From Trichodelitschia bisporula (Eukaryota): DNA of 64,000 nucleotides. This document shows, piece after piece, positions 18,361 to 60,876 of this stretch (within the stretch, counting starts at the first letter, position 1; every line of letters begins with the position of its first letter). The stretch lies in contig ML996689.1 in NCBI GenBank assembly GCA_010356995.1, forward strand, positions 452,691 to 516,690. The letters are read 5' to 3'. The notes beneath the pieces were generated by a model. That model searched no databases. It had not been told where the DNA came from and saw only the letters and a list, made by a program, of their open reading frames with translations. A program made the translations under genes and the position numbers.

Positions 18361-18432
18361 TAGCTGAAGGTGGTTTCGATCCACCGTCCTCCGGGTTATG
18401 AGCCCGGCGCGCTTCCACTGCGCCATTCAGCT
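18361..18432 (-). tRNA. tRNA-iMet (CAT), initiator
   Basis: Reverse complement AGCTGAATGGCGCAGTGGAAGCGCGCCGGGCTCATAACCCGGAGGACGGTGGATCGAAACCACCTTCAGCTA: A1:U72 pair, GGG/CCC anticodon stem, GATCGAAA T-loop, downstream T run. Confidence 0.96.
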
Positions 18433-25886: not shown

Positions 25887-26720
25887 TTACAACTTACTCC
25901 CCGCCCCCCGTCCCCCCCTCAGTTCCCCATCATCCCCAACCTCCATGGTACAAAGAATACACGTATCCCTCAAACTCCCAACCCGATACGTCTTATTCGC
26001 CTCCTGATACTCCCTACTCCCCAGCATCGCACAGAAATGCCGGAGGCTCGGGTAATGCGCGATCGCAATCTCGTCCCAGCCATCTGCACTGCCATCACTG
26101 TGCTGCCACCCCTCTCCAGCGGGTTTCTCCGGCTTCACCACGGTCCCTACGATCTTGGCATTCCCGCCGTGTTTTTTTCCTGCGCTCTCGCCGAACGCGG
26201 CGCCGTACTTGAGATATTCCCCCTTGCGCCCTTCGACGAAGGCGAGCAGGTTGAGCATGGAGATTGGGTGGCTGCGCTGGCGCTCGGGTAGGCTGGAAAC
26301 CCATTCTTCGAGCTCGGAATCGAGTTCGAGGTCGCGGCTCCCGGGCGTGGTCAGGGGCTTTTCATCACGGTACACCGGCGGGGCGACCGGCGGATTCAGG
26401 AGGGACTCGTTTTTGGATTCGAAGTCTTTGAGTAAACGAGAGGGTATCCCGGCGCGGATGGACCAGGTTAGGGGGAGGCTGGCGAGGATGGAAGACGGGA
26501 GGGAGGTGGTGCCTGGCGGGAGGAGGAGGAGGAGGGTCCAGGGGTGAGAGGGGCTGTGGGAGAGGAGGGGTGTTGTGGAGAGGGAGGAGGGGAGGATTAT
26601 CCAGCGGAGGGGTTTGGCGACGACGATGGGTGAGATACCGGCGGAGCGGAGGGTGGAAAGGAAGGTTGGGATGCTGGTCCCCTGGGGGAGGGAGACGAGG
26701 GTGAGGGTGCAGAGCGGCAT
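25887..26720 (-). CDS. Conserved fungal protein with DUF1330-like dimeric alpha-beta barrel C-terminus
   Basis: MPLCTLTL...PLRWIILPS...PISMLNLLAF...YLKYGAAF...GGNAKIVG...WDEIAIAHYPSLRHFCAMLGSREYQ. Confidence 0.75.
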   Translation of the reverse strand: MPLCTLTLVSLPQGTSIPTFLSTLRSAGISPIVVAKPLRWIILPSSLSTTPLLSHSPSHPWTLLLLLPPGTTSLPSSILASLPLTWSIRAGIPSRLLKDFESKNESLLNPPVAPPVYRDEKPLTTPGSRDLELDSELEEWVSSLPERQRSHPISMLNLLAFVEGRKGEYLKYGAAFGESAGKKHGGNAKIVGTVVKPEKPAGEGWQHSDGSADGWDEIAIAHYPSLRHFCAMLGSREYQEANKTYRVGSLRDTCILCTMEVGDDGELRGGRGAGSKL

Positions 26721-28461: not shown

Positions 28462-30346
28462 AATGCTGTGCAGAGGGCTAAGAGGGCTGAGACGGGTTAA
28501 GACGGGTTAATCGTGTTGATGGGACAGTGCGCCGTTAAGCGTAAAAAGCATGACTAGGAGCTAATATCATAATGTCGATGCCGTCACCATTCTACCCGCG
28601 CAGCACATGTCAGCGTCTTGACGGTCAAGGAAACGGAAAATCACTGATGGAGAGCCACTATGGCTCAGCTAACATGGTTTCTGCTGCTCGAGGTACTCAG
28701 TTATGTAGGCCGAGAGGAGGATTGAAGCTTGTCGGTGATGCGGAGGAGCAGACAGATGTTGCCGCTTGATCAACCCCAGGCTCTATGGACAGAAAGTTCA
28801 TGTGATATTTCCACCTAACTTGCCGAGAGGATGCAGCGAAAGGATGCTTCTTTGAGGGTTGAAGTAGAATGAAGGCTAGAAAGCGAAGCTCTCGGAGGCA
28901 ACACCACACCGAAGCCGTACGTACGCTTGACGGTTATTTTCTCCCAGATCGATCTCTGAAGCGAAACAGACAGCATCCAAAAATTAGTTTCTTAGTCCAC
29001 ACGTAGCCAGCACATTGATGGAGGGACGTCGAAAAGCTGAGACGTGACGCAGTTTAAAATGAATAGTTGCCTAGTCGGGATATCAGCGCTCGATCCGGAT
29101 CATGACCCTGTCGTCGGATTTTCGTGAAGCCTTGCCGACCCGCGTACCCAACATCAACATCAACATCAACTGTCCCAACTTCACAAGATCACGTCTTCGG
29201 TTCGTCAACTCTGCAGCTCATTGCCCTGCATCGTCTCATTATCTTCTCTGCGAGACATAGACGCCAGCGTCAGTCTTGTGCAACACTTGTCTGTCGACTA
29301 TTCAGCTCGCCACGAAACATGCTCACCAACGCGCCAATGCCATGATAAGCCGCCGCAGACGCGCCTATCACACTGCACATCGCCTGCCTGGAGCACGGTT
29401 CGCCTCGGCGCCAGCTCCCAAACCGCCTAGCACCCACTCTACCGGAAACCACTGCGCACACGAGTACTGGGCCTCGGATTCCGAACATCGAACGCCCTGC
29501 ATGCGATTATGCCCGGCCCGGCTGCGATTGCTACGCCCTGGCCAACACCCCCCACGTCGCCATGTAATGGCGTCCAGCTACCCCGCCATTGGCCGCGGGG
29601 CATATCGTTCATCTCATAGTTACGCCCCGTCCGTTGTCTCGCATCACTGATCTGATACTCAGATGTCTGCGTATGTCCGTGTATCCACTGAACTCGCTGT
29701 GCCTGACTGGGAGGCCGCCTCGATCGTGTTTTGCATCCTTTTCATGGACAAGGCAAAGCCTCGCCTTCACGAGGCAACGCGGGGTAGCAGAATGGCCCGC
29801 CCCTCATCCCCCACACCGAGGTCTACGCAAAAAGCAACGCCCGCTCAACTTCCATAGGACGCGTCCCTCATCGCCTCCGCCAGCAACCGGGCCAGCACCC
29901 GCAAAAGGACTCTCCTGCGCTCCCGCCTTCTCCCCGCCATTGGTAACCCACGAGCCCAACGACAGTCGGCCAAGTAGTCCGCGGTCGGCGTCCCTCGCGC
30001 TACAGGTCGTAGCTCGCAGTACAGCACTGCTGCGTGGCCGCGCGACTTGCCCCGCGCCGCCACCTCAGCGGGCCCCAAGCCAGGACCCCGCCGTGGCCCC
30101 CCGCGAAGAGCCTCCACGTCGGCGAGCTAGTCCATTTTGATCTACGAGTGCAGATGGGCCCGCTGATACGGCGATACGGGGCGGGGGGGGGGGGGGGGTT
30201 GGCCCGAGGGGAAGGATGGCGAACGCGTGGTGCTGTGCGGCGCGACGCGTACTTAACCCTCACTGTTGGGCTCATCGCTGACGAGCACAGCTTCCCCCAT
30301 GCCACTCCATCCGCCTTTCTTTCTTTCCCCCTAACCCCAAGGCACC

Positions 30347-32200
30347 ATGGACGTGCACGACGAAACCTTCGTCGTCGTCAAGCCCTCCGTTTCTCCCGCC
30401 ATGAGCGACGTCCACGGCCCCTCCTCGCCCTTGCGGCGCATGTCTGACGGCACAGCGCCGCCGGAGGCCCTCGTTGCGGCGTCGTCGCCCACTGTCCGCA
30501 TCCACACTCCCAGTGTCAGGACGCACACTCCCGTCCATGGCTTCCACGCGCAGGCCGGCGGCCCGCCCCACGTGCACGCCTGGCCATCCACGGCCGCCCA
30601 GCACGCTGCCGGCCAGTGGAAATACGCTTACGGCCCGCCACCCGGCCCGAAGCGCTCCAACACCGCTCCCGTTCTTCCCACTGTCACGCAGTCACCGCGC
30701 ATGGTCCCGGTTGACTCTGACCATCCCCACTTCGCCCAGCTCCGGCGGTGCGAGTCCCCATCCCTCTCAGCCCATCACCCCCCCTCGGCCCACCGCCCCC
30801 GCCCCCGTGCCCGCAAGCATTCCTTCTCCGCTTACCCGCCCGCACCGCACGTCCTGGCGCCCACGCCCCCGCCCCCACCCCCTATGTACACGGCTTCTCC
30901 TTTGCCCTTCAAGCAGCAACTGCATCAGCAGCTGCACCAGCAGCAGCAGCAGCAGCAGCAACCACCGCGCTACAATCCATATCCCTACCCGTACCCCCTC
31001 GCAGCCATGCCCCCGCCGCCCGGGCTCTACGCCCCCTTCCCACCCGCCTTGTTCCCCGCCCCCGCGCATCCCCATCCCCAGCCCCAAGCCCCGATCGGCC
31101 TTCCTACCCCCGCACCCACTGCCTGGCCCCAACGTCCCCCGTCCACCGTCACATCGGCCTCGCGCTCGCGCACTGCAACCTCGACATCCGGCAGCCATCA
31201 GCGCGGCCACTCGTCCCCGCCGCCTATTCCCGCCGTCTGGACCAGCAAGGCCTTCATCCCCGTAAAATCGCTCTACGACAGTGGCATCGTGCCGCCGACC
31301 AACGGAACCGACGGCCTGGTCAGCCTCGCACCCTTCGCGCCCCGCCGCGCCTACCTCACCTTCCACGACCTGACCACTTCCGATTTGCGCCGCTTCTGGT
31401 GGCTCCTGCGCCACGGGGACGAGGACACGTGGTATGCGCAACCCGCCGGCCCCGTGCTCGATCAGATTGCACTGCTGGCAAAGTTTCCGGGGGCGGGTGG
31501 GGGTGTCGGGATGCACGCTAAGGCGCAGTTCGCGGATGAGCACATCAGGCGGCTCATGCGGCCGGCGGAGCGCGGGCCGGTGGGCGCGGGGACAGTAAGG
31601 GTTGCGGTGGGGCGCGCGCTTATGGTCCCCGGGGCGGGAGAGGAGGATATCGAGGGTGTGCCGTGCCAGGTTGCGGGTGGGCATGGGAAGGTGGCGGCGG
31701 GGGAGGGGGGGCGGAAGAGTCGCGCGCAGCAGCGGGAGGGGGATGAGGATGCGGGGAGTGGAGAGGAGAGCGGGGATGAGGATGAGGAGGACGATGCCAA
31801 GAGCGAGAGTAGTGCTGAGTCCGACGGGAGCTTGAGCGCGGGCAGTGTGGCCAGCTCGGCGCGGTGGCTGAACGGGTGCAAGAAGTGCAGCCGTGCGAAG
31901 CAGGCGAGGCTCCGGGGGGCGAACTGTGTTTGGTATAGCGTTGTGCAGGGGATGCTGTCTGGGGGGGGTGTGGGGGATGTCCCGGTGTTCAAGGTTGTGA
32001 GGAGGGGGAGTCGGGAGGCGGCGGCCGCGCAGGCGTTTTATGATGCGGGGGCGAGTGGGTGGTCGACGCTTTTTACGGCGGTGGTGGCGGAGGAGAGGGA
32101 GCGGAGTTTGTGGCGGTGGTGTGAGGGGTGGGAGAGGGTGGAGGAGCTTTGGCGGCTTGGGGAGGGGGAGGGGAGGGGGAAGGTGAGGATGTTCTTCTAG
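30347..32200 (+). CDS. Hypothetical protein (617 aa; Pro-rich/polyQ N-terminal half, acidic tract, globular-looking C-terminus)
   Basis: Long ATG-initiated ORF in a CACCATGG context with GC3-biased codons. Confidence 0.7.
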   Translation: MDVHDETFVVVKPSVSPAMSDVHGPSSPLRRMSDGTAPPEALVAASSPTVRIHTPSVRTHTPVHGFHAQAGGPPHVHAWPSTAAQHAAGQWKYAYGPPPGPKRSNTAPVLPTVTQSPRMVPVDSDHPHFAQLRRCESPSLSAHHPPSAHRPRPRARKHSFSAYPPAPHVLAPTPPPPPPMYTASPLPFKQQLHQQLHQQQQQQQQPPRYNPYPYPYPLAAMPPPPGLYAPFPPALFPAPAHPHPQPQAPIGLPTPAPTAWPQRPPSTVTSASRSRTATSTSGSHQRGHSSPPPIPAVWTSKAFIPVKSLYDSGIVPPTNGTDGLVSLAPFAPRRAYLTFHDLTTSDLRRFWWLLRHGDEDTWYAQPAGPVLDQIALLAKFPGAGGGVGMHAKAQFADEHIRRLMRPAERGPVGAGTVRVAVGRALMVPGAGEEDIEGVPCQVAGGHGKVAAGEGGRKSRAQQREGDEDAGSGEESGDEDEEDDAKSESSAESDGSLSAGSVASSARWLNGCKKCSRAKQARLRGANCVWYSVVQGMLSGGGVGDVPVFKVVRRGSREAAAAQAFYDAGASGWSTLFTAVVAEERERSLWRWCEGWERVEELWRLGEGEGRGKVRMFF

Positions 32201-32724
32201 GGGGAAAGGGTGTGAGCAGAGGGGGATTATGGGGTGAAAGAGGCGGTGGTTTCGATGCTTCATGTTTCTACACGCATTTTTGGCGTTTGTGGAGGTGGTC
32301 TTCTGGTTTCCGCATAGCGAGAAGGTGGTATGATCTGGTTTTCACACATTCGGCGTCTGGCGTTGGATACTCGAACTCAGCAATGAGGACCCCTCGGGGG
32401 GAATCAGATTGTGGGTTTTGCTTTGCTTGTCTCGGGGGTTCGGTTTAGAGATAGATTGTTCTCGCTTCAGCACAGATTGTTGACTGTTAAGTTAGGTTGT
32501 TAGGTTGCTAGGTTTTAAGCCTAATTTAAGGGTTAGAGTTCTTGATATCCGCACTCTTCGTGCCTTTCACTCATGGATACATGCTCTTCTTCCGTCGTTA
32601 CGTCCTGCTCAACGCGTTGTCCAGCCGGACTGTTCTCCTCTGATGATCGAACCCTTCTAAGGGCGCGTTATACTAAGTTCTGCCCATTATCTTCTTCAAT
32701 AGCCCGCAGTAAAGCCGAGCATAT

Positions 32725-32876
32725 CAATGAAAAGGAAGCAGAACCATCAAAAATTAGGCGGAGATACTCCCCAAAGGAGTAGCTCATACCAGTATCCCCC
32801 CCTGCGCTGTGCCACGGCAAAGGGCTGTTCCGGTAGACTGTCGTATTCTGGATCGCGAACAGTTCCGCTTCCGTAT
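32725..32876 (-). ncRNA. U1 snRNA-like RNA, copy A, with non-canonical 5' end (3' end approximate)
   Basis: Reverse complement: ATACGGAA-GCGG-[AACTGTTCGC GATCCAGAAT ACGACAGTC]-[TACCGG..CCCTTTGCC GTGGCACAGC GCAGGGG..CTGGTA]-[AGCTACTCC TTTG GGGAGTATCT]-CCGC-CT-AATTTTTG. Sm site at 32755-32748; TATAAGTA at 32918-32911. Confidence 0.72.
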
Positions 32877-33206
32877 GAAGAGAAGAAGAATAGGAGAAAG
32901 GGGGGGGGGGTACTTATACCGCTTGAGCGAGGTCCGAGCTTGGTTCTAGTTGATAGAGGTTTTTCCGGCGCTAAGAAGGTGGTGATGCTTAGGGAAGTTG
33001 GAAGGCACGCGGTCGCTCCGCGGTAAGCTCTCCACCGCGTCAAAGACGCGTCGCGGGTCAAAGGACATCTCATACCTTCCTCACAAACATCACCACCTTC
33101 TAGAACTAGCGCCGGAAAACTCCCCATCAACTACCAAGCTCGGACCTCGCCTGAGGGGTATAAATACCCCCTCTCCCCTCCCTCTCCTCCTCTTCTTTTC
33201 TTCTTC

Positions 33207-33345
33207 ATACGGAAGCGGGACTGTTCGCGCTCCAGAATGCGACAGTCTGCCAGGGTCTCCTCTGCTTTGCGGAGAGGTGCTGGTATGGGTCCCTTGGGGG
33301 GCACCACCGTATAATTTTTGATTGCTCTGCTTCTTTTTTTTTCAT
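33207..33345 (+). ncRNA. U1 snRNA-like RNA, copy B, with non-canonical 5' end and shortened SL2 (3' end approximate)
   Basis: ATACGGAA-GCGG-[GACTGTTCGC GCTCCAGAAT GCGACAGTC]-[TGCCAG..CTCTGC TTT GCGGAG..CTGGTA]-[TGGGTCCC TTGG GGGGCACCA]-CCGT-AT-AATTTTTG. Sm site at 33313-33320; TATAAATA at 33159. Confidence 0.7.
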
Positions 33346-34065
33346 TGATATGTTCGCCTTTGCGCGGGCTGTTGAGGAAGATTTGGAGTAGCAGTTTCTT
33401 GCCTACGTCTAATCGCCATCCTCATCCTCACGCTCACACTCACCCTGACCCTGGCCCTGACCCTGGCCCTGGCCCTGAAGCCCCACCTTAACCCGCCCGC
33501 CCTAACCCACACCCTAACCCACACCCCCGACCCACACCTTCCCGCATGCCAGCCCACACCTAATCCTCACCCTTGGGAAGTGGCCAATTGGGCTCGGTCC
33601 CGCGTTTTAGCAGCAGCGACAAACTTGCACCCATTATTGACGCCGACCAACGGGCTAGTAAGGCAGTCGGCCCGTCCCAAGGCTGAGCCCCGCAGCTGCT
33701 GATTGGCCGATCGCCGAGCCCATGATGCCACACGCAGTTCGAACCCACGAAGCTGCAGGTTGACAGGTGCGGCGTGTAGTGCTTGCAGCGAGACGTGGCC
33801 AACGCACTCACCCTTTTGAGCAGTGGTCGCTGTGATCCGCTCCGGCCTCCGAGCGCCGTCGGTGGGAACGCTCGCAGCATCGCGCTCGCTGGTGCGCGGG
33901 GAGGAAGTAGCGGCAGTCCACGCCCGGGTTCAAATGTATCCCCATCACCTCCCCGCCTCTCACCAAACAGCTTCATTTACCCACTCACAGCACTTCTGTT
34001 CATTTCATCTCCAGCCCGCTAATCGCTTAGTATACACCCATTCTTTTCTATTCCAACCCACCGCC

Positions 34066-54923: not shown

Positions 54924-57900
54924 GCAGACATATACCTGTGTCCGCGGGAAAATAGCCGCCAAATCCGGCGGTTTGTAACGGCGTTTCTGGCGTCAGATTT
55001 CCCCAATGCAGGCTTCCAAGAAATCGGGCGCTTAGAGTGTTCAGTATCCCTGTTGATGGCTAACAAATTCCAGCGGACGAATTATATGAATTAGAAAATC
55101 TAAAAAGCGGCTTACCTCGCATCGAGAATCAGCCCTCCGCCACTTTTTCTAGCTCCCGCCTCGTGCCCCTCTTGGGTCTCTCCATCGCCGCCGCCTCAAT
55201 GCGTCCTCCCGCATGCCGTTTTTTTGTCCGCCCGCCCAGGTGATTTCCGATAGCCCATCTGACGAGGGGAGAGCTGGGCGCGGTTTATTCGCAAAGGAAG
55301 AGGTAGTAGAATGGGGTACTTGCGAGGCCGGTAATGCGATGGATACGACCACGCGGGGCCGCTTGATGGACGGGAGGAGCCGCTAGGCTAGTTCGAGGGG
55401 AAGCTAGGCGCTGTCTATCACTTCAACCTTTTGCCATTATTAGTCTGTTGACGACAAGCTGTGGAGTTGTGGATGGACAATCGTTTCTCCTCGATGGGGA
55501 TGATGCCTTTCCTTCACAGTTGGAATGGCCGCACGCTCCCGCGGGCTCAATTGTTCCACGGTACTGTATGTTTCTCGAGTCCCGCGCTGACGACACGATA
55601 CAACATGACTGAGACGATGTCGTCTGCTCAACTCCAATCGAGCCTTCAATCCAGCACCAGGACGCTTGCTAACACCCATCTCACACATTATCCGGCCACC
55701 TCTTCCACAGAATCAACTACGTATCTCCTCCATCAGAACAGTCTGTATGCCCCCTCTGTCCCTCACTGCGCTGCCAAACTCCCGCCCAAAACCATGACCG
55801 CCACTCCGGCATCCTCCCGAGCCCGTTTATGCTTGAGCCCTGGTCAGTCTCGATATCCCGTACAGCATCTACGACGCGGGCATAGACGACGCAAGCAGCG
55901 TAGGCGGTGCACATGGATGAACAACCGGGTATCTCCTCCAGCGAAGTCTTCGTCTATGAACTGATCAGTTGGAAGGAGAACTTGATGCCCCGTGGCATGT
56001 GGCTGTGTCTCCTCCAATCTCGTCCTCCCCTCCGCGCCCGACAGCTCACAGCCTCATTCTTGGCATTCTGCCCCGCAGGTGATCTCAGCTGGAAGCCCCA
56101 AAGCCTCGCCTTCAACCTCGAGTTGCACTCCTGCATTTTCACAAGTCCGCAATTTCTTGACTAGAATCATTATTTCCAAAATGCCACCTGCAAAGCGGGT
56201 CCAGACACGGGGCCACTTCTGTGCCTCTTCCGGCCTTTCACCACCTTCCTCACCTGTTGCTGGCGAGACCACCACGCCTGCCCCCATTAGCAGTGTCGGC
56301 TAGACATCATCTTTACCACTTGCCCCTCAGAGAGCCACCAACAGTGGACCAACCCGCCGACTTCGTCATGAAGACTACACAATAAGATGGATATGCGCTC
56401 TCCCGATGGAACTTGCGGCAGCTCAAGAGATGCTAGATGAGGAACATCAGAGTCTCCCTCAGAATGCGGCTGATTCCAACGTCTATGTGCTTGGCCGCCT
56501 CGGTGGACACAATGTCGTAATTGCGTGCCTACCCGTAGGCCAAATGGGAACCAATGCGGCAGCCTCGGTTGCTGCCCAGATGCAGTTGACATTCAACTCT
56601 GTCCGGCTCGGCCTGATGGTGGGCATCGGAGGTGGTGTGCCAAGTACAGCTGATGTACGGCTTGGGGATGTCGTCGTCAGTCAACCGTTCAAGGATCACG
56701 GCGGAGTAGTGCAGTACGACTTCGGCAAGACGACATCAGACAAGTTTGAACGGACTGGATCCCTCAATTCTCCCCCGCAGGTCTTCCTGAAGGCGATGGC
56801 AAGCCTAAAGGCCAATAACCTCCGAGAGAGAGTCGGGTTCTTACACTCTCTTTTGAAGCTCGCCCAGTACCCAAGATTTGCACGGGACAAAGCCGGGCCA
56901 GATGATTTATACCACGATACCTACAATCATGAGGGAGGACCTGACGACTGCCAGAAGTGCCGGAAAGAGTACGTGGTACGACGCCAGCCGCGCGGCGAGG
57001 ATGTTGTTGTCCATTACGGAACCATAGCCTCCGGGAACCAAGTCATGCGGGATGCGACGATAAGAGACAAACTCAGCACGGAGCTTGGAGGCGTACTCTG
57101 CTTTGAGATGGAGGCAGCGGGGCTCATGAACAGTTTTCCGTGCCTTGTTGTGCGGGGAATATGCGACTACTTGGACTCGCATAAGAGCAAGAGCTGGCAG
57201 CCGTACGCGGCGGGGACGGCGGCAGCGTACGCTAAAGAGCTTGTGTTGTTGGTTCCGCCGGCCAAAGTCGAGACACCAGAAGATCCACCCGCGCCGGCAA
57301 TGCTCCTAAACTTGCCCAGGGCCGCAGACACACCATCGAAGCCACACGAGCGGAAAAAAGCGCCTTGCCTGATTGGTACCCGGGTCGAACTTCTCAGAGA
57401 GATCTACGCCTGGGCTTACGGGGAGAACTCGCCAAATATTTTTTGGTTAAGTGGTTTAGCTGGTACCGGCAAGTCCACTGTGGCTCAAACTGTGGCCGCC
57501 GAATGTTTTCAGAAGGGAAGGCTTGGAGCCAGCTTCTTCTTCTCGCGAAGTGGCGCAGATGTCCGGCATGCCGGCAAGTTCGTGACAAGCATCGCAGCGC
57601 AACTTGCAGACAACGTGCCGGGGGCAAAGCGGTCTCTCTACGAAGCACTGAAGGAGCGAGATACCATTACTGAAGAACCTATCCGCAGTCAGTGGCATCA
57701 TCTCATCCTCGGTCCCATGTCGAAGCTCGAAGGCGACACCTCTGCTCCGTACATCCTGGTAATCGATGCCCTTGACGAATGCGAGGGCGAGGACGACATA
57801 TGGGAAATTCTGGATCTCTTTCGGTGGCTGAAGAAAACCCGGCTCCGGCTGTTTTTAACGAGTAGACCTGAAGTGCCAATCCGGTCTCCTTTGTCCGGAA

Positions 57901-60440
57901 TGCCAACAAGCGAGCACTTGGACTTTTTGCTCCACAGCATTGAGAAGTCGACTGTTGACAACGATATCCGCTTCTTCCTACGGCACGAGTTCGAAGGTCT
58001 AGCCCGGGGACGCTCTTTTGGGAAAGATTGGCCAGGTGAGCAAGTCATCGACTCTCTTGTCCGGAATGCCAGTGGCCTGTTCATCTGGGCTGAAACCGCA
58101 TGCCGCTTTGTTCGACAAGGAAAAGCATTCGCTCCCGAGAAACTAAGCTTGATCCTCGACCGAAGCCATAGTACTGTGAAAGCGCCAGAGAAGCATCTCG
58201 ACGAGATCTACGCGACTGTTCTTCGCCAATCCTTTACCGACTATGAAGACGATGATGCAGAAAAGCTGCGATCCACATTGAAGGAACTGCTTGGAAGCAT
58301 CGTGATCCTGTTTGATCCGCTTTCCATCCGGTCCTTGAGCAAGCTACTCGGCCAGAATATGGGTCGGGCACTGGATGATCTTCACGCCATTTTGGACATT
58401 CCAAAGGAATCAGGTGACGCACTCCGTTTACATCACCCTTCGTTTCGTGACTTCCTTCTCAATCCAGGGAGAAGCGGGAAAACAGGTATCTGGGTTGATG
58501 AAGAGGAGGCGCATCGAGCCCTTGCCACGAAATGCATACTGGTCATGTCTGACTTCCTTACGCAGGACATGCTTGGAATAGGTCGGCCTGGAGTACTCAA
58601 GACCGAGGTCGACAGTCATGAGGTTGAAGGCTCCCTCCATCCTGAGAAGCAGTATGCATGCCTCTACTGGATACAGCATCTTCATAAGAGTGGATCTCAG
58701 CTCAACGATGACGGTAAAGTTCATCAGTTCCTGAAGAAGCATCTCCTTCATTGGCTTGGGGCGCTTGGATGGATGCAGAAGGTTTCCGAAGGGTTCCATG
58801 CCATCGTGTCTTTGGAGTCCATGATTTCGGTAAGCTGGACGTAAAGCAGAATGGGGATACTTGGCTGATACTTGGCTCAGGCGCAGAGGTGTCCCCGACT
58901 GTCGGGGTTTGTTCATGACATGAAACGATTTGTCCTCTACAACCGGTCAGCCATCGAACTAGCTCCCTTGCAGACATATTGCAGTGCGCTGGTATTTTCC
59001 CCGGCAGCAAGTCTTGTAAAAAGGCAGTTTCAAAGCCAAAAACATCTGTGGATGCCCCGACTACCGCAGGTTAGGGACAACTGGGATGCCTTGCTGGATA
59101 CGCTCGAGGGCCATTCGGATTCGGTCAGGGCCGTGGCCTTTTCGCCGGACGGCAAGCAGCTGGTGTCGGCATCGGATGACGGGACGGTCAGGCTGTGGGA
59201 CGCCGGCTCGGGAAAGGCGCTGCAGACGCAAGCAGTTGCCAGGTTCCGGATCGGATCCTCCACGTTTCAGAATTGTCGGGGAATGGATGACCATAGGTGC
59301 GGAAAAATGTCTTTGGCTTCCAGTCGAGTATCGCAATCCGCTACATGTCGCTGTTCACGGAAGCAAGGTTGGCTTGGGGTATTCGTCTGGTCGAGTACTG
59401 TGCAATTTCTCTTAACCGCCTCCCCACCCACCTCCGTTGCGGTCTTAGCCCTTTATACCTCTTTGAGAGTGAAAGTGGCAAAGGATTACAAATGGGAATG
59501 GTACGGCTTTGAAATCAAGCACTCCATTAGCAGATGGTAACAGTGGCGTACAAAAATGTCGCCAGATCAGTGAAGTAATGGCTTCAATGCAATGGGTATC
59601 TGGAAACATCTGGAATTAACCATTCCTTCAGTCCACAGAGAAGGTATGATGGAATGTAGTGGCTGTGTTCAATGTTTTCCACTCCCAGTTCTTGCGTCGA
59701 GCAGAGCGTTGATGAAGACGGGACCAGGCCCTAGCACAACCTGGTCAAAGCCAGAAAAGGGAGACAGTTGCGTACACCATGTCCTCTCAATAGCCTCCAT
59801 TGATAAAGACCTGAAGCTGTATTAGGATGCTAGGCGGATAATCCTATGTTTGTCATCTGAGACCCTACACAGAGAGCCCGATTCTTGAGCGCCACCAACT
59901 CCACCCGCGCCATCAACTTCACCCGTGTCACCAACCCACTCGCCACCTGCGCCACTGCCTCAGCTCGTCTTCCCTTCCCTCACCACGGTACAACTCCACA
60001 CTTAGCCCCCTAGCCACCCCACTCGGAGAATCGGAGTGCGGGGTAGTGTTGCCTGAGTCACGTTGGGGCCGAGCTGACACTGCGAAGACGGAATATGGGT
60101 CCTAACAGGCGCCCCCGCTTAATTGAGATATGACCCTTCCGATACTCATGATACTTCGCTTGCAGGTCCAACCGGGCCGGTTCTGGAGAGGGGAGCCCGG
60201 CGACAGGCCGAAGACGGGGCGATTTAAGGGAGGCGCTGTGGTTCAATGCGGAGGGCAGGACGAGCACAAGTTACTGCCCATCTAAAATCACTTAGCGCGT
60301 CAGTAATTTCCAATTGAAGGAAATCTGGTGCTGGATTTAGCGGCAAGACGGACGAAAGTATTGGCTAGCAAGGATGACAATGCATAGGTTAGTCCAGATT
60401 GGGCACTTTTCTAATTGAGCTTAGGATACGGACACAAGTC
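54924..60440 (+). mobile_element. Captain-less (non-autonomous/derelict) Starship-like element inserted in 5S rDNA, carrying an NLR gene
   Basis: Bounded by the two halves of a 5S gene, with a GTC direct repeat at both junctions. Inverted motifs ACCTGTGTCCG (54934-54944) and CGGACACAAGT (60429-60439). Left end is homologous to that of the captain-bearing element at 60894. Confidence 0.78.
56181..59415 (+). pseudogene. PNP_UDP phosphorylase-NACHT-WD40 NLR (HET-E-like), disrupted (intron 58830-58880)
   Basis: DYTIRWICALPMELAAA, GLMVGIGGG, CFEMEAAGL, RGICDY; Walker A GLAGTGKS; Walker B LVIDALDEC; HPSFRDFL; one WD40 repeat. In-frame TAG at 56301. The conserved tail (LWLPVEYR...GRV) is out of frame after ~59230. 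Confidence 0.88.
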
Positions 60441-60541
60441 AAAGAGAACATCAGCCCCAGTCTGCTCACTGAAGTTAAGCTTTGAACCGGTTGACTAGTA
60501 GTTGCGTAGGTGACCAGCAGCGAATCCCAACTGCTATATGT
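60441..60541 (+). rRNA. 5S rRNA gene, 3' fragment (nt 18-118, degenerate) followed by T-rich Pol III terminator
   Basis: AAAGAGAAC...GCTCACTGAAGTTAAGCTTTGAACCGG...TAGTAGTTGCGTAGGTGACCAGCAGCGAATCCCAACTGCTATATGT followed by TTTT. Confidence 0.88.
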
Positions 60542-60876
60542 TTTCTGTCTTTTTTACACCCCGGAAGCTTGCTGATCGGCTCGTTCAGCGGGAGGAGCTC
60601 CGAAGCTTAATGTAAGCCGACACTCTGGCCGAAGGACCAACCGAAAAAGTCATAGCTGTCCCGTCCGCAAAATCAGCCAGGCGAGGTGGCCATGATAATT
60701 TTTCAGGTGGCCCGTGAAGCTTTCTGCTCAGCCGGCTGATCGAGGGAGATGCTCCGCAGCTTAACGCATGTCCCCTATTCCAACCCAAGAACGCTCTCGC
60801 TCGGAGAGCTAACACTTCTTTTGACAATGATTTTGTTTTTTCGCTAGTTATTAGTTAACCGGCAAGACAGTCCACC

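Follow-up and report, generated by a model that had tools for sequence, protein, structure and literature searches.

A 64,000-nucleotide stretch of the genome of the filamentous ascomycete Trichodelitschia bisporula (GenBank assembly GCA_010356995.1, contig ML996689.1, positions 452,691 to 516,690 of the forward strand; the whole stretch is hereafter the window, and all positions are counted within it) carries at 32688-33382 a palindrome whose two arms, as judged from the DNA, are on balance probably functional genes for variant small nuclear RNAs (snRNAs) that derive from U1 and have a rewritten 5' end. Specifically, the arms would contain two divergently transcribed, TATA-driven genes for an Sm-class snRNA of ~175-190 nt that descended from U1 by gene duplication. 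The RNAs would have kept from U1 the AUAC start, the closing helix (helix H) with its three stem-loops, the apex of stem-loop 1, the Sm site AAUUUUUGA behind helix H and a 3' hairpin, and would have changed the sequence that recognises the 5' splice site (AUACGGAAGC for AUACUUACCU), with stem-loop 2 left free to change. Both copies would have been retained by selection since an old duplication.

The palindrome is an inverted duplication of ~700 bp, with arms at ~32688-33000 (copy A, minus strand) and 33083-33382 (copy B, plus strand). A repeat search resolves it into arms of 77, 68, 56, 27 and 23 nt with 77-91% complementarity, and the alignment of one arm to the other spans 406 columns with a mean column identity of 82%. 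From the centre to the outside, each arm presents two conserved blocks, then a TATA box and a C/T tract, and lastly a unit that begins with ATACGGAAGCGG, and the two units are arranged divergently, head to head. The initial annotation of this DNA had described an inverted duplication with a TATA box, a pyrimidine tract and an ATAC start in each arm, and the repeat search, the alignment and the letters themselves bear this out: ATAC lies at 33207-33210 in copy B and at 32876-32873 in copy A, and ATACGGAAGCGG, which constitutes the first 12 nt, is alike in both copies at 12/12 letters, as had also been stated. In copy B these 12 letters (33207..33218, plus strand, delimited by identity to copy A) comprise the changed 5' end (nt 1-8) followed by GCGG (nt 9-12), which supplies the 5' strand of helix H; in copy A, alignment to copy B places the identical 12 nt at 32865..32876 on the minus strand.

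Copy B is predicted to encode a U1-like RNA of ~175 nt (33207..33381, plus strand) that runs from 5' AUACGGAAGCGG to the 3' hairpin. Its start is set by the alignment to the Rfam U1 model, which begins at 33207, and by the context ...CTTC before ATAC, which is common to a locus with a canonical U1 5' end elsewhere in the genome. The end of the functional unit is placed at 33381/33382 because the similarity of copy B to copy A and to a third locus ceases there. Copy A is predicted to encode a U1-like RNA of ~187 nt (32690..32876, minus strand), as delimited by its alignment to copy B and by its folds, without an Rfam U1 match.

The comparison of the two arms reveals a mosaic of conservation. 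Columns are identical at 12/12 positions in nt 1-12, 26/29 in stem-loop 1, 14/16 in the 3' strand of helix H with the Sm site, 38/44 in the 3' hairpin, 29/37 in promoter block 1 and 27/34 in promoter block 2, whereas identity falls to 17/43 in the central spacer that separates the promoters (32996..33082), 18/49 in stem-loop 2 and 14/39 in the downstream flank. The conserved blocks are thus 78-100% identical and the spacer, stem-loop 2 and flanks 36-40%; Fisher tests of the conserved blocks against the pooled background (49/131) return p values from 9e-11 to 1.4e-4. Since the neutral parts look saturated, the duplication is taken to be old, and the retained blocks are those needed by an RNA polymerase II small-RNA gene. 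This mosaic suggests purifying selection on both copies. The initial annotation had proposed selection on structure and on the new 5' end, and the alignment points to selection on nt 1-41 and, besides, on the promoter, the Sm site and the 3' hairpin.

The promoter of copy B (33083..33166, plus strand), recognised by inter-arm identity and by its likeness to the third locus, consists of the blocks 33083-33119 and 33120-33150 followed by the TATA box TATAAATA at 33159-33166, the first T of which lies 48 nt before ATAC. The promoter of copy A (32913..32995, minus strand), placed by alignment to copy B, has the same blocks and the box TATAAG (32918-32913), whose first T lies 42 nt before ATAC. An 18-nt promoter word, ACCAAGCTCGGACCTCGC, is present solely in the two arms, and 0/100 shuffles reached two matches. 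The TATA box and C/T tract of copy B (33155-33210) also resemble several other loci of the genome at >=80%, some of them in contigs of sequencing runs that are guessed to be RNA; this recurrence probably reflects a common composition of promoters and leaders rather than homology.

The likeness to U1 emerges from an unbiased scan of the whole window against 4227 Rfam families, in which U1 is the sole snRNA model that matches. At the curated Rfam cut-offs the region has no match; in a permissive scan the U1 model (RF00003) matches copy B over model positions 1-166, beginning exactly at the A of ATAC, with a score of 24.1 bits (E 0.049 for the whole window, E 0.00085 for a 1.1-kb scan). Alignment confidence is high at AUAC, at helix H, at the loop of stem-loop 1 and at AUAAUUUUUGAU, the Sm-type site of copy B. 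With E allowed up to 10, the remaining Rfam families give the units nothing beyond noise. The units are very probably derived from U1, as the initial annotation had surmised, if judged by the model alignment and the order of the elements. They are not classed as U1 proper, since they fall short of both the invariant 5' end and the curated score.

The rewritten 5' end is the main departure from U1. Nt 1-10 of both copies read AUACGGAAGC where canonical U1 has AUACUUACCU, a 5' end that the available text of PMC4383343 presents as invariant from yeast to human: A1-C4 and A7 are retained, and nt 5, 6 and 8-10 are replaced. In the register given in the accessible part of the same paper (PMC4383343), the variant tip is unable to pair with G+1 of the intron, which makes a direct role in the recognition of GU 5' splice sites unlikely. 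When CTTCCGTAT is searched in the window with at most one mismatch, 10 matches are returned against 9.5 expected, two of which (2/10) are the genes themselves, indicating no enrichment.

Behind helix H, both units carry an Sm-type word, AAUUUUUG, that starts at nt 122 in copy A, the position given in the initial annotation, and at nt 107 in copy B. The 11-letter form TAATTTTTGAT occurs at just these two sites in the window, where 0.40 are expected. Copy B has CCGU, which closes helix H on the 3' side, together with the site AUAAUUUUUGAU at 33307..33322 (plus strand, 14/16 columns as in copy A); in copy A, CCGC and the site CUAAUUUUUGAU, identified by folds and word search, occupy 32746..32761 (minus strand). 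Both sites start 1-2 nt past helix H. A conserved 3' hairpin of 43-44 nt follows, beginning ~17 nt (copy B) or ~14 nt (copy A) past the Sm site. It lies at 33339..33381 in copy B (plus strand, -12.5 kcal/mol), where it may be a terminal stem-loop or a 3'-end processing signal and recurs at the third locus, and at 32690..32733 in copy A (minus strand, -12.2 kcal/mol, z -2.41). The stem-loop 4 of the Rfam U1 model is not aligned to the 3' hairpin of copy B.

Each of the eight sub-hairpins of the two units forms when folded alone, with z values from -0.71 (stem-loop 1 of copy A) to -3.32 (stem-loop 2 of copy B). Stem-loop 1 of copy B (33219..33247, plus strand) has the loop CUCCAGAA closed by a G.U pair and folds at -11.4 kcal/mol (z -2.95; 3/200 shuffles as good). 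The loop of human U1 stem-loop 1 makes contacts with U1-70K that are described in the available text of PMC4383343. The predicted loops of the present stem-loops measure 8 nt in copy B and 12 nt in copy A, and not the 10 nt that had been attributed to both. Stem-loop 2 lies at 33248..33285 in copy B (plus strand, -18.8 kcal/mol) and at 32787..32835 in copy A (minus strand, -20.2 kcal/mol, z -1.52), where it is 11 nt longer and exposes UGGCAC in the apical loop. Stem-loop 3 lies at 33286..33306 in copy B (plus strand, -10.4 kcal/mol, z -1.09) and at 32761..32785 in copy A (minus strand, -10.8 kcal/mol, z -3.00). As anticipated, stem-loops 2 and 3 have diverged between the copies and still form hairpins in both. 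The U1A site in the loop of U1 stem-loop 2 is AUUGCAC; the proposed likeness of copy A to this loop holds loosely, with GUGGCAC agreeing at 5/7 letters by eye, and is absent in copy B, whose loop, UUU, sits on a different stem, so that stem-loop 2 is not counted as carrying a U1A-type loop.

When nt 1-8 and the Sm site of copy B are held single-stranded, the predicted structure of the whole unit consists of helix H (GCGG/CCGU), three directly adjoining stem-loops and the 43-nt 3' hairpin, at -60.9 kcal/mol; its three hairpins are present in every fold, and in copy A stem-loops 2 and 3 form always. On a plain sequence alignment, copy A forms 45/55 of the pairs of the U1-like fold of copy B, where slid controls pair 41-55% of cells; 9 pairs are changed on one side and 2 on both sides, and 10 cells are unpaired. 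A further pairing is peculiar to copy B: AUACGG (33207-33212) is perfectly complementary to CCGUAU (33307-33312) just before the Sm site, which is not the case in copy A, and in the minimum-energy fold of the copy B core this 6-bp AUACGG/CCGUAU helix replaces helix H.

Related loci were sought by comparing 32500-33550, at 80% likeness, with the contigs of two DNA sequencing runs of the same organism (X1 and X2), which are possibly the source of the window itself. In each run one contig spans the palindrome without any difference, and elsewhere only short pieces of the promoter or the 3' hairpin match at >=80%. A separate contig of run X1, with a depth of ~452 that is near single-copy, matches the tract of copy A from the TATA region to the start (32873-32907) at >=80%; the tract is rich in C and T, and unrelated loci have tracts like it. 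Going one way, this contig reaches a TATAAATACC box with its first T 48 nt ahead of ATAC, a spacing that copy B shares; in the other direction, when the minus strand is read, TTACCT comes after ATAC and gives the invariant U1 5' end. By eye, an 11-letter stretch of the same contig differs from the stem-loop 1 apex of copy B (33226-33236, CGCGCTCCAGA) at one position and from that of copy A at two. The 9-letter canonical U1 start is absent from the window. A canonical U1 locus with the same promoter layout, whose existence elsewhere in the genome the initial annotation had left to be confirmed, is accordingly found on a separate contig, and the window units are very probably paralogues of it. 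The contig stops after 41 letters of the U1 body and appears in run X1 only, not in the other run of this sample; a break at that point might indicate a repeated U1 body and hence several canonical copies.

A third locus, on a contig of 22.5 kb in run X1 and of 18.5 kb in run X2, matches 33146-33181 (31/36 letters) and 33335-33381 (45/47 letters), with 160 unlike letters between the two matches against 153 in the window; upstream, its loose end shares 21/30 letters with 33116-33145 by eye. This locus thus shares the promoter and the 3' hairpin but has a different body, and it could be either another variant or one more canonical U1. The contigs of two other runs, X3 and X4, guessed to be RNA, cover 32500-32551 and a C/T-tract look-alike only, with no bearing on expression.

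In the mechanism that we propose, transcription would start at ATAC, and each RNA would be capped and assembled with an Sm ring, and probably with U1-70K, into a variant U1-type particle that could not read GU 5' splice sites. The 8-nt single-stranded tip might then direct the particle towards other RNAs (complement CUUCCGUAU). In another version, the tip might fold onto the CUGCUUC tract past the Sm site, and the particle would serve as a regulated or closed U1-like scaffold; this second option recalls the compact pre-snRNA structures over the Sm site of human snRNAs described in the available text of PMC10584915. The guidance of the particle to a new target is possible in its specific form, though doubtful. 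A broader proposal, in which at least three loci that share the snRNA promoter and the 3' hairpin would form a small family of U1-derived Sm-class guide RNAs, with the U1 body as a protein scaffold and the rewritten tip aimed at RNAs other than splice sites, is in our judgement fairly unlikely; possible roles in that case are 3'-end formation, transcript stability or particular unusual introns, and the tip would be masked by the post-Sm tract until particle assembly.

Several results weigh against functional variant U1 genes with a free, rewritten tip. The U1 score of copy B is 45 bits below the Rfam gathering cut-off of 69.5 bits, and for copy A a search over 221 bases gives no U1 match with E values as high as 10 admitted; the predicted hit of the U1 covariance model is hence obtained end to end for copy B, below the cut-off, and not for copy A. 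Folding without constraints brings copy B to a minimum of -67.0 kcal/mol, in which the junction is closed by the 5' end paired to the post-Sm tract, and copy A adopts the U1 layout (GCGG/CCGC) only when helix H is enforced, at -53.9 kcal/mol against -67.1 kcal/mol unconstrained. The described architecture of a closing helix, three stem-loops and an Sm site consequently holds for copy B under constraint and for copy A only by enforcement. The ensemble probability of helix H is <=0.001. Left unconstrained, copy A (nt 5-19) and copy B (nt 5-12) both pair with the CUGCUUC tract past the Sm site; the new 5' end is engaged there in these models, which weakens the case for its acting as a free guide. 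Covariation, computed from two sequences only, is not significant, as 258/500 shuffles reach the observed score. Stem-loop 1 of copy A (32836..32864, minus strand) is weak, at -4.2 kcal/mol with 39/200 shuffles as good, and two pairs of the copy B stem are broken in it. Furthermore, only 5/10 letters of the invariant U1 5' end (nt 1-4 and 7) are retained, the evidence for the canonical U1 locus consists of one contig in one run and 30 printed letters, and patchy gene conversion within the inverted repeat could in principle mimic the mosaic of conservation.

Gene conversion is the central element of an account in which the units are decaying U1 pseudogenes: an old duplicate lost its 5'-splice-site sequence and was copied in inverted orientation, and the conserved patches are conversion tracts. 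Inverted repeats are known substrates of gene conversion, and this account would suit the weak U1 score of copy B and the lack of one in copy A, the two lost pairs in stem-loop 1 of copy A and the drift of stem-loop 2 to background identity (18/49). It requires, however, at least four separate tracts that coincide with functional elements, since at least four conserved blocks fall on the promoter, the 5' end with stem-loop 1, the Sm site and the 3' hairpin, against 36-40% in the spacer and flanks. Moreover, the TATA box, the Sm site and the 3' hairpin are intact in each copy, stem-loops 2 and 3 fold as hairpins in both despite their divergence, and the third locus retains the 3' hairpin at 45/47 letters, all of which makes simple decay quite unlikely. 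A pair of RNA polymerase II small-RNA genes that do not come from U1, namely another Sm-class or structured RNA under a general snRNA-type promoter that resembles U1 by convergence, is likewise improbable. The score far under the threshold of the family, a 5' guide and a stem-loop 2 that differ from those of U1, the TATA boxes and C/T tracts like 33155-33210 at other, apparently unrelated loci, and the 3' hairpin, which lies ~17 nt further from the Sm site than stem-loop 4 of the model and is hence unaligned, would be compatible with such an origin. Convergence would nonetheless have to reproduce the first four letters of U1, the order of helix H, three hairpins and Sm site, and a stem-loop 1 apex that shares 10/11 letters with the canonical U1 of the organism, in the absence of any other Rfam family at E up to 10 besides noise.

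A mobile element of the foldback or miniature inverted-repeat transposable element (MITE) type, or a plain palindromic intergenic region, without an RNA product, would account for the ~700-bp palindrome itself and for the sub-threshold matches to MIR1437 (64.7 and 60.8 bits against a cut-off of 168), which show only the capacity to form a long hairpin. It is very improbable, as the palindrome is single-copy: one contig spans it in each DNA run, the many genomic copies that the initial annotation had set as a refuting condition are not seen, only short pieces recur elsewhere at >=80%, the window holds no second copy, and the similarity of the arms fades gradually outward without sharp termini. 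The identity of MIR1437, a plant microRNA-precursor model, is itself dismissed as an artefact of a GC-rich palindrome. A coding role is also set aside, because the four open reading frames (ORFs) concerned, three overlapping the palindrome and one beside it, give only sub-cut-off Pfam matches (E 0.025 and 0.072); a protein-database search with the pseudo-ORF that overlaps copy B returned 15 candidates, none at E <=0.01. It is hardly conceivable that the units are the working U1 of a species with co-evolved 5' splice sites: beyond the U1-like architecture nothing speaks for it, the genome contains the locus with a canonical U1 5' end, which contradicts this reading, and GTAAGT is present at the ends of ORFs in the window, e.g., at 25892 (minus strand) and 48477 (plus strand). 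The overall count of GTAAGT in the window, 10 against 12.2 expected, is uninformative.

Considered as U1-derived variants, the units share with canonical U1 (RF00003) the AUAC start, a predicted 4-bp helix H around three stem-loops, which copy A forms only by enforcement, and AUAAUUUUUGA straight after helix H with a 3' hairpin beyond it; the loop of stem-loop 1 may be of the U1-70K type. With the canonical U1 locus of the organism they share the TATA promoter and, in copy B, the 48-nt spacing. They differ from canonical U1 in a single-stranded tip of 8 nt instead of 10, in the replaced nt 5, 6 and 8-10, in a copy B stem-loop 2 without the U1A-type loop, and in a 3' hairpin further from the Sm site. 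Animal variant U1 RNAs with altered 5' ends form large gene families with functions that are still debated, and Kyriakopoulou et al. 2006 is reportedly among the work on variant U1. The variant U1 (vU1) or U1-like snRNAs of human and other animals are the nearest analogues of the units. The present RNAs would differ in belonging to a filamentous ascomycete, in forming a small family of two head-to-head genes and at least one related locus, and in having 5/10 of the first positions rewritten. According to the available text of four papers (PMC8457000, PMC5786027, PMC3561869, PMC10870369), the animal RNAs are U1 duplicates altered in 5'-splice-site recognition and in protein-binding loops.

Many fungi have just one locus for every snRNA, as stated in the accessible part of PMC8457000. 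In Aspergillus fumigatus, the isoforms U1-1 and U1-2 differ by a single nucleotide at position 128 and have a canonical 5' end, according to the available text of PMC2377427. The units of T. bisporula resemble that pair in that more than one U1 locus exists in a filamentous fungus, and are unlike it in that the window copies differ throughout the guide. The U11 RNA of the minor spliceosome acts like U1 with another 5' guide and has a similar junction and Sm architecture. By eye, the 5' end of the units does not match what we take to be the complement of the U12-type 5' splice site. Identity with U11 is excluded, as Rfam U11 gives no match at E up to 10 and the accessible part of PMC11347168 reports that no minor-spliceosome snRNAs were detected in Ascomycota.

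The initial annotation knew of no fungal U1 paralogues of this kind, and the literature search agrees: no fungal U1 paralogue with a rewritten 5' end was found, within a coverage that leaves mostly outside the subscription journals and does not include supplements. The available portions of two surveys of fungal structured RNAs do not mention such an RNA, and the 12-letter string was found in one paper only, on control elements of Actinobacteria. A metagenome scan for ATACGGAAGC and TAATTTTTGAT separated by a gap of 90-120 nt returned 30 loci, all of them (30/30) unrelated and mostly AT-rich chance matches; it yielded no orthologue, and none of the 30 has the stem-loop 1 sequence or the promoter.

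If they are indeed produced, U1 relatives whose intron-recognising tip has been rewritten would be out of the ordinary among fungi. A filamentous fungus that has no more than two or three of these genes, apparently under selection, would offer a simple genetic system for a U1-type particle unable to read splice sites and could reveal the way in which a new guide arises on an old snRNP (small nuclear ribonucleoprotein) scaffold. Without expression of the RNAs, the locus would be no more than an uncommon pair of U1 relics.

The surrounding window is GC-rich (~58% GC) and contains genes of the Pezizomycotina type, including NDT80/PhoG, a PNP_UDP-NACHT protein and DUF7907. Beside copy B, at 33442-33538, lie two short tandem arrays, ACCCTG x6.2 and CCCTAACCCACA x3.2; the latter holds the TTAGGG-type telomere hexamer on the other strand, and neither RNA unit has a word that resembles a telomere template. 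Two other RNA genes are recognised in the window, namely a tRNA-Met gene (anticodon CAT, 66.2 bits) at 18361-18432 on the minus strand and a single dispersed 5S rRNA gene (48.6 bits) at 60424-60542 on the plus strand. The 5S RNA begins with AUACGGA, the 7-letter word that also starts the U1-like units, a coincidence that is probably due to chance. The tract 30335-32341 has 69% GC and, on each of its two strands, a very long frame that is free of stops (621 and 524 codons), with no Pfam match. Lastly, the ORF at 56304-58844 (plus strand) combines a domain of the purine/uridine phosphorylase type with NACHT/NPHP3_N domains, corresponding to a fungal NLR-type architecture.

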